A DNA stretch of 64,000 nucleotides from an uncultured Chloroflexia bacterium (GCA_963703345.1 OY969814.1:288001-352000), one strand, 5' to 3'; shown: positions 18,025-48,725, numbered from the stretch's first letter. The notes: generated by a model from the letters alone, not told the origin. Numbers and translations: made by a program.

Positions 18025-19295
18025 GCTTTTCGCCAGGTCGTGCCGGCGGGTGTGTCCTCGAGGACAATGCCCAGCGCGGCGAGGCGGTCGCGAAGCTCGT
18101 CGGCGATCTCCCACTGGCGGGCGTCGCGCAGCCGGTTGCGCAGGTCGATCAGGAGTTCGACGAGCGGCGCCAGGTTCGCTACGAGCTCACCGCCGGTAGA
18201 ACCCATCTCTCTGCCCCACAGATCAACGAGCGTCCGCAGCTCGGCGCGGGCCCCGAGGACGACCTCAGCCTCGGCGCCGGTCGCTTCCGCGCGCTCGATA
18301 GCCTGCACCAGCTCGTAGGCCTGGCCGGCGATCGCGGCGTCGGATCCGCCGTCGGGGCGCTCAACCAGCGTCCGCTCGGTCTCGCCGACGGTGCGCGCCA
18401 GGTCGTCCCTGGCCTGGGCGGGAGTCTTCCGGACCGGCGCTTCGACGACGGGCGCGCTGAGCGACATGGCAGCGCTGCGCAGCTCGTCGAGGCTGAACGC
18501 GCTGTTAGCGGGAAAGACCTTGTCTTCGCCGCCGGGACGTCGCACCGTGACCTGACCCGCGCCCGTCACGCGGCACTCGCCTTCGCCGAGGACGAGGATG
18601 CAGGCTGTGTACTCATCGATGCCTACGATGACCGTCCACTCCGGCAGGAGCGCCTCCAGGGCGTCGAAACGGGGCTTGCCCATGAAGCAGAAGCGCGTGT
18701 CGTAGGTGCCGCCCTCGCTGTTGTTCCAGTGGGGGACGATCGTCAGGTCGAGGCCGTAGGGGGCGAGCAGGTTCAGCCCTTCGGTCCAGTGCGGATCGGC
18801 ACCGACTTTGTAGATCTCGTAGACGGGCAGCGAGTAGTGGCCGATGGCGATCGCGGCGGCGCTGGCCAGCGCGAGGTGGCTGCCTTCGTCGACGCGTCGC
18901 GCCACGGCGTCGATGACGGGCGTGCCGGTCCAGTTGCGGATAGCGTAGGAAGGACTGCCGGGCCCGGCGAAGATGTAGTTGGAGCTTTCGATCTTCCTGA
19001 CGGCGTTCTTCACCTCGGCATCGGTAGCGCTCTTCGCCGACTTGAAGCCGGCGAGGGCGCAGGGCACGCCCAGGTAGCGTTGAACGTAGGCGCGGGCGCG
19101 TTCCGAGATGTTGTCGGCGTTCAACTCGAAACCGGCGGGAGTGTCAAGGAAGACGGCGCGGACGGGGCCATCGATGCGGGATGCGATCCACTGGTGCACC
19201 CGCGTCATCGACTCCGTTAGCTCGCCGGAGCCCATAAGGGTGACGGTGCCTGCCTGCCGGTAGGCGGGGCCGCCTGAGGGGTCGCCGCGCTCCAT
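18021..19295 (-). CDS. Peptidase S51/cyanophycinase-like protein fused to a CysRS C-terminal-like helical domain
   Basis: [19 protein letters not shown] (Ser), VPHWN (His), GIDE (Glu); C-term [15 protein letters not shown]...GI.LED.P.GT.W. Confidence 0.85.
19249..19268. repeat. Short palindromic element CCTGCCTGCCGGTAGGCGGG inside a CDS (encodes PAYRQAG)
   Basis: Imperfect 20-nt palindrome just before the conserved MGSGE strand; half-copy CCTGCCTGCCGG in dnaE2 at about 23348-23359. Confidence 0.6.
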
Positions 19296-22876: not shown

Positions 22877-25800
22877 CTAGCGGAAGTTGTGCGCGGGCGG
22901 CGTGACGAGCGACGCCTCGACGCGCAGGGGTGTGAACTTTTCGGCGACAACGTTCAGCGTCCCTTCCCGCTTCTGTAACTTCCCACGCACCAGCAGGAAC
23001 GGCTCCGTCCGGATGACGCTCCGCGACGCGGCGTAAAGCCCCGGCTTAACCACCACATTCGCCAGCCCGAACTCGTCCTCCAGCAGCAGGAAGACGAAGC
23101 CCTTCGCCGTCATGGGGTGCTGGCGGCAGACTACGAGCCCCGCCATATCCACAGTCGCGCCGTCTGCCAGCCTGTCGAGATGCTTGCTGGAAACGACGCC
23201 CTCGTGCAGGGCGCGTCGCACGAAGGCCAGCGGATGGTGGCCGGGCGAGAGGCCCAGGTTCTCATACTCGGCTGCCATGCGCTCCCAGGCCGTCATGTCG
23301 GCCAGCGACACCATGTCCTGCTCGATGGGCAGCGGCAGCGGCATCTGCCTGCCTGCCGGACCGTCGTGCGGGCGGATGACCAACCCCGCCTGCCACATCG
23401 GCGTACGACGATTGGCGACCAGCGCTTCGAAGGCGCCCACCGACGCCAGGTTCTCGACGGCGGTCTGCGGCAGTCGGCTGCGGTTCATAAGCTCCCACAC
23501 CGAGCCGTAGGGCCCGTTGCGCTGCCGCTCCTCTTCGACAGCCTGCGCCGCGCTCTCGCCGATGCCGCGCACGTAGGCGAGGCCCACTCGCACGGCGTCG
23601 CCCTCCGGCCCGTCTTCGACCGTGCAGCGGGCGCCGCTGAGATTGATGTCGGGGTTGAGCACGCCGACGCCGTGTCGTTTGGCGTCGTTGGTGAAGACGT
23701 GCGGCGCGTAGAAGCCCATGGGCTGGGCGTTGAAGAGGGCGCAGTAGAACTCCGCCGGATAGTACTTCTTCAGCCAGGCCGACTGGTAGGCGAGGACGGC
23801 GAAGGCGGCGGAGTGGCTCTTGGGGAAGCCGAACTCGGCGAAACCCAACAGCTTGTCGAAGACCGTCTGCGCCGTCTTCTCGTCGACGCCGCGGGCCAGC
23901 GCGCCTTCGCGGAACTGCTGCCAGAAGCCCTGCATCGCCTCCCGGGAGCGCTTGCGGCTGATGGCGCGTCGGAGGGCCTCCGCCTGGCCGGCGGTAAAGC
24001 CTGCCAGCGCCATCGCGACCTGCAGGACCTGGTCCTGGTAGATCACGACACCCAGCGTGTCTTTGAGGGCGTCCTCCAGCGACGGGTGATCGTAGGTGAC
24101 GGGCTCTTTGCCCTGCTTACGACGCACGAACGGGTTCACCGCCTTGCCGACGATGGGCCCCGGCCGGACGATGGCGACCTCCTGCGTCAGCTCTTCCAGG
24201 GAGCGCGGCTGCGTGCGCGGCAGGAGCTGTATCTGGGCGCGGCTCTCGATCTGGAAGACGCCGATGGTGTCGCCGGCGCAGATCATGTCGTAGACGGCGG
24301 GATCGGTGAAGTCGATGCGGCTGAGGTCGACGCAGCGACCGCGGCGGGCGGCGATGATGTCGATGCAATCCTCGACGAGCGAAAGCATTCCCAGCGCCAG
24401 GAAGTCGATCTTGATCATGCCAGCGTCGTCGACAGAGTCTTTGTCCCACTGGCAGACGTAGCGGCCGGGCATGCCGCCCCTTTCGATGGGCACGAGTTCG
24501 GCGACGGGCTTGGAGGAGATGATCATGCCGCCGACGTGCTGCGAGAGGTGACGCGGCATACCATCGATCTCCGCCGCCAGCGTCACGAGGTCGCGCCAGA
24601 GGAGAGCGCCGGCCTTGCGACTGAACTCCGGCAGCGAAGCCATTTCTTCCGGCAGATGGTGGGCGTGTCGCGCCTCGACGCGTTTCGCCAGCTTGTCGAG
24701 CTCCGCTTCCGGCAGGCCGAGCGCTTTGCCGACATCGCGGACGGCGGAGCGCATCTTGTAGCTGATGATCTCACCGACGAGGGGCGCGTGGTCAGGCCCG
24801 AACTGGTTATGGACGCGCAGGATGAGCGCCTCGCGGATGTCGCGGGCGAAGTCGAGGTCGATGTCCGGGACGGAGGTGCCTTCTTCGTTCAGGAAGCGGC
24901 CGAAGAAGAGGTTGTAGCGCAGCGGGTCGACGTGGGAGAGGCCGATGAGATAGCAGATGAGCGAGCTAACCGAGGAGCCGCGTCCGCGCCCCGGCGGCAG
25001 CCCGGCAAAACTTCGGGGCGAGGCGCCGCGCACCTTCGCCGCCTCCTCGCGCGCCATCTCCAGGAGCTGACGGTAGACAAGGAAGAAGCCGGAGAGGCCG
25101 CGCTTGCGCACCATGCCCAGCTCCTCGCGCAGGCGGGCGTCGACCTCCGGCGTGATGCGTCCGTAGCGCTCACGGGCGGCCTCGCGGCAGATGCGCTCCA
25201 GGTGGGAGTCGACCGTTTCGCCTTCGGGCACCGGGTAGTCGCCCGGACGGGCGCCCGTCGGGGCGGGGAAGGTGTAGCCGAGGTCGCGCGTGAGGTCGAA
25301 GGTGCAGCGCTCGGCGATACGGACGCTGTTGGCGAGGGCATCGGGCCATTCGGCGAAGAGCGCCGCCATCTCTTCGGGCGACTTGAGGTAGTACTCGGAG
25401 TTCTCGCGGCGCAACTGATGCGAGGCGTCGAGCGTCGTGCGGTGGCGGATGGCGACGAGCACGTCCTGGAGTCGATGGCGTTCGCGCAGGTGGTAGTGGA
25501 CGTTGTTGGCGGCGACGCAGCCGAGGCCGAGTCGCTTCGCCAGCGTCGTCAGCGCCCGGTTGCGCTCGCGGTCGCCGTAGACGAGGTTGTTCTGGAACTC
25601 GATCCAGAAGCTCTCCCGGCCGAAGGCATCGACGTAGCGCCGCGCCGCTGCTTCGGCCTCGCGCAGACGTCCGGCAGCAGCGAGCGACGGCACCTCTCCT
25701 CGCTTGCAGCCGGAGAGGGCGATGAGGCCTTCGCTGTGGCGGGCCAGCGTCTCGAAGTCCAACAACGGCTCGCCGCGCTTACCGGACGTGTGGGCGTGTG

Positions 25801-26197
25801 TGAGGAGGAGGCAGAGGTTGGCGTAGCCACGCTGCGACTCGCAGAGGAGGGTCAAATGATTGGTCGGCCACGTCGCACGTCCTTCCCTGGAAGGACTGCT
25901 CGCGGCCCCTTTTCTTTCTATTCTGAGGGGACACCCCTCAGACTCCCCGACAGGGGGCTCTGCCCCCTGTACCCCCGTTGCTCTGAGCGTGACTTCGGCG
26001 CCGGTGATGGGACGGACGCCGAACGCCTTCGCCGTCTGGGCGAACGCCATCGCGCCGTAGAGGCCGTCGTGGTCAGTGAGGGCGAGCGTGTCGTAGCCGA
26101 GCTCGCGGGCGCGGAGTGCCAGCTCCTCGGGAGTGGATGCGCCCTCGCGGAGGGAGTAGCAGGAGTGGCAGTGAAGTTCGACGTACGGCTCAGTCAT
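22877..26197 (-). CDS. dnaE2: Error-prone DNA polymerase III alpha (DnaE2/ImuC) with in-frame insertions
   Basis: ELHCHS PHP domain, GRGSS, PDIDLDF, KIDFLALGML, GFPKSH, QPMGFY, C-terminal AHNFR motif. Confidence 0.96.
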   Translation of the reverse strand: MTEPYVELHCHSCYSLREGASTPEELALRARELGYDTLALTDHDGLYGAMAFAQTAKAFGVRPITGAEVTLRATGVQGAEPPVGESEGCPLRIERKGAASSPSREGRATWPTNHLTLLCESQRGYANLCLLLTHAHTSGKRGEPLLDFETLARHSEGLIALSGCKRGEVPSLAAAGRLREAEAAARRYVDAFGRESFWIEFQNNLVYGDRERNRALTTLAKRLGLGCVAANNVHYHLRERHRLQDVLVAIRHRTTLDASHQLRRENSEYYLKSPEEMAALFAEWPDALANSVRIAERCTFDLTRDLGYTFPAPTGARPGDYPVPEGETVDSHLERICREAARERYGRITPEVDARLREELGMVRKRGLSGFFLVYRQLLEMAREEAAKVRGASPRSFAGLPPGRGRGSSVSSLICYLIGLSHVDPLRYNLFFGRFLNEEGTSVPDIDLDFARDIREALILRVHNQFGPDHAPLVGEIISYKMRSAVRDVGKALGLPEAELDKLAKRVEARHAHHLPEEMASLPEFSRKAGALLWRDLVTLAAEIDGMPRHLSQHVGGMIISSKPVAELVPIERGGMPGRYVCQWDKDSVDDAGMIKIDFLALGMLSLVEDCIDIIAARRGRCVDLSRIDFTDPAVYDMICAGDTIGVFQIESRAQIQLLPRTQPRSLEELTQEVAIVRPGPIVGKAVNPFVRRKQGKEPVTYDHPSLEDALKDTLGVVIYQDQVLQVAMALAGFTAGQAEALRRAISRKRSREAMQGFWQQFREGALARGVDEKTAQTVFDKLLGFAEFGFPKSHSAAFAVLAYQSAWLKKYYPAEFYCALFNAQPMGFYAPHVFTNDAKRHGVGVLNPDINLSGARCTVEDGPEGDAVRVGLAYVRGIGESAAQAVEEERQRNGPYGSVWELMNRSRLPQTAVENLASVGAFEALVANRRTPMWQAGLVIRPHDGPAGRQMPLPLPIEQDMVSLADMTAWERMAAEYENLGLSPGHHPLAFVRRALHEGVVSSKHLDRLADGATVDMAGLVVCRQHPMTAKGFVFLLLEDEFGLANVVVKPGLYAASRSVIRTEPFLLVRGKLQKREGTLNVVAEKFTPLRVEASLVTPPAHNFR
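25241..25264. repeat. 24-nt near-perfect palindrome in frame in dnaE2 (APTGARPG)
   Basis: GCCCGGACGGGCGCCCGTCGGGGC; removal restores YTFP-DYPVPEG. Confidence 0.65.
25863..25979. mobile_element. Family A multi-hairpin MITE/REP-like element inserted in frame in dnaE2
   Basis: Colinear with 27780-27894; hairpins CTGAGGGG-ACA-CCCCTCAG and CAGGGGGC-TCT-GCCCCCTG; adds ~39 aa between GAEVTL and HLTLL. Confidence 0.85.
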
Positions 26198-26444
26198 AGT
26201 CCTGCTTGAACCAGCAGTGGCGGGCGAGGTCGTGATATACGACGAGCGGGCGGCCGTCCTCCAGCAGCAGGCGGTAGTACAGGCGCGAGACCTCCTCCCG
26301 CCACCACTCGTCGTCGATGCGCCAGACGTCCAGCACCTGCGATACCGTCAGCCGCCGGCCCAGGACGACGGCGACAGGCTCACCTGCCTCATCCGTCGCT
26401 ACCGCCAGCGGCCGCGGCTCCTTGAGCGGGCTCAGTCCCGTCAC
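26190..26444 (-). CDS. DUF6504/ImuB C-terminal-like small protein
   Basis: V..V.D.WRIDDEWW....R.YY.L......VYHD....WF; GTG start overlaps the imuB TGA. Confidence 0.85.
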   Translation of the reverse strand: MTGLSPLKEPRPLAVATDEAGEPVAVVLGRRLTVSQVLDVWRIDDEWWREEVSRLYYRLLLEDGRPLVVYHDLARHCWFKQDYD

Positions 26445-27751
26445 GGTTCGTAGTCGATAAGGGCGTGACGCCTCTCCGGCAGTCGCGACCACGGCTCCAC
26501 CTCCACCACCCGCGATATGAGAGGCCGCCCCCAGCGCGCGCGTAGCTGGCGGGCCGTCTCGCCGAGCTGCCGCCGGAGCCCCGCTTTTTCCGCGAACAGC
26601 GTCGACTGGCGGCCGCGCTCCTCCGTTATCCCCGACAGCTCGATCGTCAACTCCTCCACCGGCGCCGGCAGGCAGACGCCCGTGGGAGCGGCGTTCGAGA
26701 GGACGCTTTTGACGATGAACAGCATTCGCTCCCAATCGGTGACGGCTTCATGGAAGGTGAGCGCCTTCTCCCAGCTCCGTCCGCCCCAGAGAGCGGCGCG
26801 CAGACGCAGGCGACGGGCGGCGCGACCGTGCAATCGCCAGTGCAGGCGCACGAGCAGGCGTCGGCAGGCGACGACCAACGCCTCGATGCTGACGGCGGCG
26901 GACGGGAAGCGCAGCGTCTCGCTCAGGAACTCTTCGGGATGTCTTGGGCGTAGCGGCTCGCGGTCGATGCCGCGGGCGAGCTCGTGGAGGCGCTTTCCTT
27001 CGCTGCCGAACTGGGCTTGCAGCGGCCCGGGCGCGAGCATCGCCAGGTCGCCGAGGGTGCGCAGGCCGTACAGGTCGAGGCGTCGCAACGTATCGGCCGA
27101 GGCGACGGAGGCGTTTAATTGACCAATTGAAATCAATTGTTTTTTCGCATTTTTCTGAACCTGGAAAGTGGTCGACTGAATCTGAGAAAAGGTGTCGAAA
27201 TGCGCCAAAAGGGCGACGTCCAGGGGGCACAGGAACTCGGCCTCTTTGCCCTCGGGGACGGTGCATACCTGGCCGGGCCGGCTGGTGACGGCGGCGGTCC
27301 AGGCGACGAATTTGCCTTCCGCTACGCCGACGGCGGTCAGGAGACCGGTTGTCTCACGCAGCGAGCGGACTATCCGCTCTCCCAGGTCCAGCTCGTCTTC
27401 ATAGTGAAGGGCCAGGCCGCCGGCGTTGAGGTAGGCGCGACCGAGAGCGCCGGGCTCGACTTCCGGGCTGAAGGTTTCGAGGACGGCGAGCAGGGAGTCG
27501 AAGACGTCGCTGTAGCGGGAGGGATGCGGCGGCAGGAAGACAGCGTCGCGGCAGAGGGCGAGCGCCGGCCGGAGCGGCATGCCGATGCGAACGCCCTGCG
27601 ATTCGGCTTCGGGCGAGCAGTCGAGGACGGCCTTTCGCTGATCGGGGGTCTCGCCGATTACGAGCGGGCGGCCGCGGAGGGAGGGATCGCGCTGTCGCTC
27701 GACGGCGGTGGGAAAGTGCGGGATGAGGATGCAGGCGATTCGCATGGCCAT
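26441..27751 (-). CDS. imuB: ImuB-like inactive Y-family polymerase with in-frame insertion
   Basis: IMS fold (L.G.PL, CS.EA...GV..GM, SPEVE, LARGID); catalytic D/DE replaced (LIPHF, ALGRAYL); QSTLF clamp motif. Confidence 0.9.
   Translation of the reverse strand: MAMRIACILIPHFPTAVERQRDPSLRGRPLVIGETPDQRKAVLDCSPEAESQGVRIGMPLRPALALCRDAVFLPPHPSRYSDVFDSLLAVLETFSPEVEPGALGRAYLNAGGLALHYEDELDLGERIVRSLRETTGLLTAVGVAEGKFVAWTAAVTSRPGQVCTVPEGKEAEFLCPLDVALLAHFDTFSQIQSTTFQVQKNAKKQLISIGQLNASVASADTLRRLDLYGLRTLGDLAMLAPGPLQAQFGSEGKRLHELARGIDREPLRPRHPEEFLSETLRFPSAAVSIEALVVACRRLLVRLHWRLHGRAARRLRLRAALWGGRSWEKALTFHEAVTDWERMLFIVKSVLSNAAPTGVCLPAPVEELTIELSGITEERGRQSTLFAEKAGLRRQLGETARQLRARWGRPLISRVVEVEPWSRLPERRHALIDYEP
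27119..27216. mobile_element. Family B AT-rich element inserted in frame in imuB
   Basis: TTGACCAATTGAAATCAATTGTTTTTT...GAAATGCGCCAAAAGGGCGA aligns by eye with 60755-60855. Confidence 0.8.
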
Positions 27752-27779
27752 TTTATCCAACAGATAGATGTTCCAGTGC

Positions 27780-27894
27780 GTCGGCCACGTCGCACGCCCG
27801 CCGGGGGCGGGACGGCTCGCGGCCTCTTTTTTTGAATCTGGGGGGACACCCCCCAGGCCCTCCGTCAGGGGGCTCTGCCCCCTGTACCCCCGTT
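27780..27894. mobile_element. Family A element in the 5' leader of the imuB operon
   Basis: GTCGGCCACGTCGCACG...CAGGGGGCTCTGCCCCCTGTACCCCCGTT shared with the dnaE2 copy. Confidence 0.85.
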
Positions 27895-27930: not shown

Positions 27931-27960
27931 ATAATAGAACACATGTGCTGGCTTTGTCAA
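27931..27960 (-). promoter_or_regulatory. Sigma70 promoter with overlapping LexA (SOS) box
   Basis: Minus strand TTGACA-N18-TATTAT; AGAAC-ACAT-GTGCT at 27936-27949 (one mismatch to AGAAC-N4-GTTCT). Confidence 0.8.
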
Positions 27961-32817: not shown

Positions 32818-32898
32818 GGGGACCAAAGGGAACACCCCTTTGGAACCTCCTCCAGAGGCGGACCTTCGGCCGGCAGAGGGATACCCTCTGCACTCCTT
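32818..32898. repeat. Divergent family A element copy
   Basis: CCAAAGGG-AACAC-CCCTTTGG and GCAGAGGG-ATA-CCCTCTGC-ACTCC, same order and orientation as the other copies. Confidence 0.65.
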
Positions 32899-36472: not shown

Positions 36473-36532
36473 GAATTGGGGGCACAGCCCCCAAACCCCC
36501 AGTCAGCGGGGCTTCGCCCCTCTGCACTCCCC
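36473..36532. repeat. Divergent family A element copy
   Basis: TTGGGGGC-ACA-GCCCCCAA and GGGGC-TTC-GCCCC-TCTGCACTCCCC. Confidence 0.7.
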
Positions 36533-36595
36533 TTGAACGCCGTTGACTCCTGACGGGAGCGCTCATAGACTCGCGAGCAGGAGGCTAGAGCGAAG

Positions 36596-43598: not shown

Positions 43599-43621
43599 AT
43601 TCTGAGGGATGAATCCCTCAG
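43599..43621. repeat. Family D palindrome ATTCTGAGGGATGAATCCCTCAG
   Basis: CTGAGGGAT-NN-ATCCCTCAG; copies at 48533 and 48703. Confidence 0.75.
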
Positions 43622-48532: not shown

Positions 48533-48725
48533 ATTCTGAGGGATAAATCCCTTCCTGCGGCGGGCAGGCGGTGGCAGCTTTTCCCAGGCGACGGCGGCGC
48601 GAGTCCAGATCAGTTGAGCTGCGGGTTTCAACGCGCAGACCTGAGGAAAGCACCGCCCGATGCCTCGCTGGCTCGGGGTGGAAGCTGTAGTGATTGATTA
48701 CAATTCTGAGGGATAAATCCCTCAG
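48533..48725. repeat. Two family D palindromes (48533-48551 partial, 48703-48725 complete)
   Basis: ACAATTCTGAGGGATAAATCCCT occurs twice, 170 bp apart. Confidence 0.8.

Follow-up and report, generated by a model that had tools for sequence, protein, structure and literature searches.

Two copies of a three-hairpin element of about 115 nt lie in the imuB-dnaE2 mutagenesis operon of an uncultured Chloroflexia bacterium, within a 64,000-nt stretch (GCA_963703345.1 OY969814.1:288001-352000) that is called the window here. One, copy 1, is read in frame within dnaE2, the gene of an error-prone DNA polymerase; the other, copy 2, occupies the leader of imuB (Table 1). Our results suggest, with a probability of about 0.62, that both are end-less remnants of a non-coding miniature inverted-repeat transposable element (MITE) whose complete form measures 168 bp and carries ends of the IS5 family of insertion sequences (IS), and that the operon keeps them as tolerated passengers. 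The element itself is ordinary and belongs to known kinds; its notable feature is a well-controlled insertion hot spot in the PHP domain of DnaE2. Genomes and loci are cited by our own G and L numbers, G000 being the genome that contains the window.

A dispersed family of hairpin elements

The preliminary description of this DNA had reported two repeats that share their ends and vary within their stems, and this was borne out. The copies align end to end with 82% identity over their full length (pairwise alignment, E 6e-27), each contains three hairpins (fold z of -6.3 and of -3.3 to -3.9 against shuffles), and the stem variants quoted there, such as CCCGCC/GGCGGG, are present in the sequence. 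Copy 1 makes a net insert of 114 nt; the 38 residues that it adds (about 73-110) fall between two strands of the PHP domain in the dnaE2 product. Copy 2 is found about 30 nt upstream of the imuB start codon, between that start and the promoter with its LexA box. The nearest relatives of copy 2 are intergenic copies in related genomes (87-89%) and that of copy 1 is its orthologue in G003 (92%), which rules out copy 2 as a recent local duplicate of copy 1. A composite transposon with the two copies as its ends was ruled out too, since the leader copy of G002 and G008 stands without a counterpart in dnaE2; the two vary independently among relatives. The suggestion that both copies act on one transcript gained no support: they are not each other's nearest relatives, genomes with both are few, and most relatives lack the two altogether.

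Searched with an iterated profile, the 2.28-Mb genome yielded 23 two-hairpin elements (24 matches, one counted twice), among which copies 1 and 2 are the only ones with a third hairpin. Twenty-one are clear of predicted genes, one falls in a doubtful N-terminal extension, and the last is copy 1; relative to adjoining genes, copies occur on either strand. A conserved unpaired G-tract, GGGGT, leads into each of the first two hairpins. The two divergent copies listed in the preliminary description are real, have the same orientation and keep two hairpins, but they belong to a sister form in which a CCCACCC tract stands where copies 1 and 2 have hairpin 3.

In relatives, the three-hairpin form is dispersed between ordinary genes, with up to 20 pattern matches per genome. 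A covariance model matched 52 of 92 genomes of one Chloroflexota order, a count that includes partial two-hairpin matches and leaves out one unpublished genome. In public records, the matches listed for the full form carry Dehalococcoidia or Chloroflexia titles. A wide spread of the third hairpin across taxa was rejected: among the matches listed, those outside Chloroflexota records are without the other hairpins and look like chance. A phage origin was not supported, with 0 element matches in viral contigs.

Structure rather than sequence is kept, as had been proposed, and the expected covariation and extra copies were both found. In an alignment of 22 copies, both partners vary in 11 of 32 pairs and pairing is kept in 94.8% of cells, which exceeds all 500 shuffles, a control that ignores kinship, and all slid controls. 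These copies were chosen by a pattern that fixes the base of hairpin 3, so the invariance of that base follows from the search. On the GGGGT strand, G-T mismatches outnumber A-C mismatches (23 vs 5 in the alignment and 7 vs 1 in this genome); moreover, stems are kept while loops drift in the coding copy (see below). A G-quadruplex was also considered, and four G-runs are present in 20 of 22 copies, yet it is the favoured fold in 6/22 only, neither window copy among them. An antisense terminator was rejected, the one weak match of 5 pairs being at chance level.

Inverted-repeat ends and an IS5-type partner

Many copies in relatives are enclosed by an outer inverted repeat starting CTAG-CAGGGTGCTGAA. 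A metagenome scan with a pattern of the core alone, the ends being excluded, drew on 80 of at least 126 stretches and recovered 77 distinct copies. These are close kin from few projects, and 53 of them have the third hairpin. The left repeat was present in 36 of these 53, the right in 34, both in 28 and at least one in 41, and the both-ended copies span 165-179 bp with a mode of 168. Genome copies gave a similar picture at lower counts (left 13, right 8, both 6, out of 37). Matching ends bound 1.3-kb elements with an IS5-family transposase gene in G055 and G057 (NF033581, 253 bits, cut-off 140), and 5 of 8 transposase loci checked had ends on both sides. One unit interrupts a single CTAG of a paralogous repeat, which represents a paralogous empty site. 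In 10 of 32 left ends, the TAG is the stop codon of an open reading frame (ORF) of at least 150 codons. The neighbours of the element are ordinary genes, and a transposase fragment was seen in 1 of 136 frames.

The family is probably one of MITEs: its members are short, have no transposase, are multi-copy and dispersed, and share their ends with an autonomous IS5-family element. The search for an autonomous partner that the preliminary description had suggested was successful, but the partner is of the DDE type and would act on the outer terminal inverted repeats; it is not a hairpin-binding Y1 enzyme. According to passages of a review, prokaryotic MITEs are non-coding, 50-500 bp long and have terminal inverted repeats as in an autonomous IS, and in-frame fusions are covered there (PMC10969869). 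The element resembles the IS-derived MITEs of those passages in its size, its lack of coding capacity, its IS-shared ends (IS5 family, NCBIfam transpos_IS5_4), its hairpin-rich interior and its place between genes. It differs from the typical ones in that the window copies are end-less, the genome has no cognate transposase, and the modular interior also occurs without ends. Since the window copies lack ends, we class them as cores or remnants and not as intact MITEs. We propose that an IS5 transposase, acting in trans, would move the unit into CTAG sites, and that the MITE or its core may have inserted into the leader and into a permissive loop encoded by the LexA-repressed operon. The ends would later have been lost from the window copies, with the frame kept; only trimmed copies would survive in dnaE2 because the full unit would break the frame.

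Several results weigh against this origin, the kinship of the metagenome copies being one. CTAG stands on both sides in 14 of 28 both-ended copies, a symmetry that is partly built into the end pattern. No orthologous empty site of the 168-bp unit was found. Copies 1 and 2 show no remnant of the ends (profile p 0.22-0.81 against random intergenic DNA), all 23 elements of this genome are without them (0/23 with ends), and the junctions of copy 1 with dnaE2 show no target duplication. By protein or family search, no IS5 transposase was found in G000, which is 96% complete and assembled as one contig; the transposase query was likewise unmatched in G015, G019, G023, G025, G033, G050 and G075 despite their end-bounded copies. 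Conversely, G042, the genome richest in ends with 75 matches to them, has the transposase but no core copy. IS5-type ends also enclose unrelated hairpin families, and the two-hairpin module also occurs by itself, joined to a different tail or arrayed in tandem. Ends around other hairpins, together with a module without ends or with other tails, suggest that the core could predate the shell and be mobile in its absence.

In an unlikely alternative, the GGGGT-tagged hairpin module is a unit similar to repetitive extragenic palindromes (REPs), moved as single-stranded DNA by another enzyme, and the IS5-type ends are a shell that captured some of the copies or that these entered. The element does have REP-like traits, being palindromic, multi-copy and mostly extragenic. 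The unpaired G-tract before each of the first two hairpins and the strand-specific wobble bias would fit such a unit, as would the 23 end-less copies in this genome and a module variant that reaches up to 50 copies in another family. Moreover, IS5-type shells hold many cargo types, and other occupants of the dnaE2 loop are repeats that flank genes of Y1 transposases. The orientation of the copies agrees with the halves of the GC skew in 18 of 23 cases (p 0.011), although the agreement falls to 12/17 (p 0.14) once neighbours are merged, and the replication origin was not located. Note that the cumulative GC skew is inverted with respect to the usual pattern, its minimum lying at about 1614 kb and its broad maximum close to the dnaA-like gene (408 kb).

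The search for an enzyme argues against this alternative. None of 50 Y1 loci examined, from about 187 matches, carried the element (0/50), two weak matches being another repeat, and neither G000 nor G015 has a Y1 transposase match; a Y1/RAYT partner was therefore rejected. The CTGAGGG, CCCCAGCC and GTAG repeats, by contrast, do flank Y1 loci. No GTAG or CGTC tag is present at the hairpin foot, where the conserved lead-in is GGGGT. Nor was any nuclease enriched among the 136 frames neighbouring the element, and at least one end accompanies 41 of the 53 copies of the three-hairpin form, as described above. The protein that had been supposed to recognise the hairpins was not found. We also observed a CTGAGGG doublet repeat in the window (43599-43620, 48533-48720), with 30 matches in the genome although this genome is without a Y1 gene; the repeat flanks Y1 genes in relatives (L226:1453-2293), and in G001, G007 and G008 it fills the dnaE2 loop that holds copy 1 here.

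The PHP loop of DnaE2 as a recurrent insertion site

We fetched 86 dnaE2 loci across the order, of which 82 were resolved and 4 were not. When empty, the loop has 7 residues. In-frame inserts of 7-74 residues are present in 33 of the 82, and 49, including those of G002, G006 and G013, have none. The copy 1 segment is a gap against homologs, and joined empty forms were also seen in metagenome contigs from related organisms. The occupants are of at least 8 unrelated types, several of them being Y1/REP ends. The three-hairpin core fills the loop in G000, G003, G010 (truncated) and G007 (a hybrid of the core and a Y1-type repeat), with G005 at a contig edge, and in G072 the loop is occupied by the sister form, which is oppositely oriented. 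Other loops hold three Y1-flanking types, short tandem repeats and several unclassified inserts. The CCCTCACCCC-type occupant recurs in four genomes, each of which has 18-59 matches; two palindromic occupants are single-copy in their genomes by pattern search. Filled and empty states alternate on the DnaE2 tree, with at least 19 changes among 74 rows. This tree was built with FastTree after removal of the inserts and comprises 75 of the 86 rows, short or frameshifted ones being left out.

As a control, DnaE1 was analysed in the same genomes. In 76 of 77 full-length matches its first 200 residues cover 597-618 nt, and 1/77 has an insert, after five partial rows and the unpublished genome were dropped. 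Moreover, a survey of 452 orthologue pairs (G008, G006; 154,000 aligned residues) contained 36 indels of at least 6 residues, and the only repeat-derived inserts of at least 20 residues were copy 1 and an insert in imuB; for this survey the G006 stretch was selected so as to contain the operon, and inserts that split an alignment would escape. Outside the order, 22 of the 26 loci that were parsed have an empty loop, in a sample that favours empty alleles, and a clear palindrome was seen in 1 of 20 longer-span loci.

The same PHP loop is 14-25 residues longer in solved DnaE1 proteins. In the predicted structure of the window's DnaE2, residues 84-107, between strands 62-72 and 112-119, have a local confidence score (pLDDT) below 50, a low value being normal for an insert without homologues in the alignment; the rest is confident (mean 88), and the model matches the fold of Pol III alpha with a template modelling (TM) score of 0.8. 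A single-sequence fold, with pLDDT 37, was uninformative. The insert is thus predicted to lie in a floppy surface loop with the fold intact. The loop may accept inserts because it is a surface turn, longer in DnaE1, in a gene that LexA would keep mostly silent, and later repeats may nest in or replace earlier ones.

We then compared paired and unpaired positions of the inserts. Between copy 1 and its G003 orthologue, stems differ at 1 of 70 sites and unpaired positions at 10 of 56 (p 0.002); the unpaired divergence equals that of fourfold-degenerate sites (18%), and the changes mostly alter residues. Against G010, copy 1 differs at 4 of 62 sites, and fourfold sites at 34%. The stem variant of copy 1 is single-copy in G000, G003 and G010. 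Four insert pairs pooled gave 7/211 for stems vs 26/157 for unpaired sites, two of the four not being significant singly and two further pairs not having parsed. The imuB insert has no such stem conservation (10/48 vs 5/54). Arm-to-arm repair of palindromes can keep stems paired. The contrast between stems and loops therefore fits either selection on structure or arm-to-arm repair; under the MITE origin, the stems would stay paired through such self-repair or through weak selection on DNA or RNA structure, and not on the peptide.

A regulatory role of the copies is possible. On this reading, the hairpins would have been domesticated: structure in the leader and in the loop would damp or time expression of the polymerase gene, and a hairpin from any repeat would suffice. 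We regard this as improbable. It would account for the stem conservation of copy 1 and of the pooled pairs, for the restriction of repeat-derived inserts of at least 20 residues to dnaE2 and imuB among the 452 pairs, and for the strong folding of the imuB leader (z -3.65). Yet 49 of 82 dnaE2 loci have no insert, and repeat-filled imuB leaders were seen only in G000, G002, G003, G007 and G008, which form one clade and whose leaders have been remodelled with other repeats; the remaining leaders in the order are mostly 24-57 nt long or have a different motif. Furthermore, the imuB insert lacks stem conservation, palindrome self-repair mimics the pattern without selection, half of the pooled pairs are not significant by themselves, and copies lie on either strand of adjoining genes. 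We are equally doubtful of a related proposal, that the PHP loop is a selected 'hairpin socket' in which, as in the leader, a stem-loop from any mobile family is kept to tune the amount of polymerase; if this were true, mobile repeats would be exchangeable dials on mutation rate. Finally, it is barely conceivable that the element is a known structured RNA, an HDV-like (hepatitis delta virus-like) ribozyme or Clostridiales-2 RNA: Rfam matches to Clostridiales-2 at copy 1 (25.4 bits, E 0.026) and to the CPEB3 ribozyme at a relative's copy (22 bits, E 0.06) score far below the gathering thresholds of 58.6 and 35 bits, the CPEB3 match omits most of the model, and the arms covary as simple hairpins, not as a nested pseudoknot.

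Repeats of two unrelated transposition chemistries fill this loop but not that of DnaE1 in the same genomes, and stems rather than residues are conserved. Together these points argue for a property of the host gene, which may be tolerance, single-stranded exposure at the time of damage, or selection, rather than the target preference of one transposase. Passages of Di Nocera et al. 2013 (PMC3733652) describe REPs inside dnaE2 and other replication and repair genes, which are often the only decorated genes of a genome; these authors considered the placement not fortuitous and speculated on mutator effects, and noted that, recB excepted, REPs within such genes occupy different sites. Compared with the intragenic REPs of those passages, the element here is likewise a dispersed palindromic repeat, in frame within dnaE2; it differs in being without the GTAG/CGTC tag and in flanking no Y1 gene, and here one loop has been filled repeatedly, by at least 8 types of two transposition classes. 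From what the same two sources say of them (PMC3733652, PMC10969869), Rickettsia palindromic elements are similar in being palindromic repeats of about 100-150 bp fused in frame, with a short peptide added, whereas in-frame insertion is rare here (1/23) and limited to the mutagenesis operon, and the stems are conserved and the peptide is not. In the open-access literature we found no paper on this element family or on repeated filling of the dnaE2 loop. The loop thus provides a counted case for a puzzle open since 2013, why mobile palindromes gather in repair and mutagenesis genes, and matched filled and empty dnaE2 alleles are available for testing the effect on mutagenesis.

The operon and its other repeats

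The features of the operon and the copies of the element in the window are listed in Table 1. A box of the same LexA type also precedes a gene of this genome that is presumably lexA, and it is found before imuB at the same place throughout the order.

Table 1. Element copies and neighbouring features in the window (positions counted from its first letter)
Feature	Position	Strand	Remarks
Copy 1, three-hairpin core	25863..25979	-	in frame in dnaE2; no terminal inverted repeats
Copy 2, three-hairpin core	27780..27894	-	imuB 5' leader; no terminal inverted repeats
Sister form (two hairpins + CCCACCC tract), intergenic	32818..32898	-	
Sister form (two hairpins + CCCACCC tract), intergenic	36473..36533	-	
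dnaE2 (imuC), error-prone DNA polymerase, 1106 aa, uninterrupted frame	22877..26197	-	PRK05672 above cut-off
Conserved 84-aa ORF between imuB and dnaE2	26190..26444	-	no family match
imuB-like Y-family (IMS) gene	26441..27751	-	family search
Sigma-70-type promoter TTGACA-18-TATTAT	27931..27960	-	spacer holds LexA-type box, 27936-27949
Second in-frame repeat insert, 33 residues in imuB	27107..27205	-	unrelated AT-rich dispersed repeat
Third in-frame insert, 8 residues in dnaE2	25241..25264	-	short palindrome, missing from aligned relatives

The AT-rich repeat inserted in imuB has 6 copies in the genome by pattern, 5 of them intergenic. It is about 100 nt long and centred on a CAATTG palindrome, is also found near 28.3, 348.8, 757.0, 762.9 and 1420.2 kb of the genome, and is read in frame in imuB in a five-genome clade. 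A 20-nt palindrome (window 19249-19268; genome 448.1, 1164.9 and 1265.7 kb) lengthens several other proteins in frame by about 7 residues; repeats this short thus also occur outside the mutagenesis operon.

Two further insertion hot spots were observed in dnaE2, at reference residues of about 260 and 815-850 (L035, L048, L050, L358, L359, L371, L383 and others), with up to 148 residues of stacked in-frame repeats; G025 has a sister-form copy at the 260 site. Although the 84-aa ORF and dnaE2 overlap in the window, 0.6-2.1 kb of diverse cargo separates them in G003, G004, G006, G008, G010, G011, G016, G021, G025, G034 and G040. By eye, several of these cargoes resemble candidate antitoxin/PIN-toxin pairs on the opposite strand.

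Finally, sixteen imuB leaders of one clade (family f4), 63-99 nt long, share the motif CCCT ... AGGG ... TCTCC ... GGAGCCG directly after the LexA box (L355, L363, L364, L367, L370, L373, L374, L375, L379, L380, L387, L391, L396, L409, L410 and L411). This motif is unrelated to the three-hairpin element and is a candidate cis-regulatory RNA.

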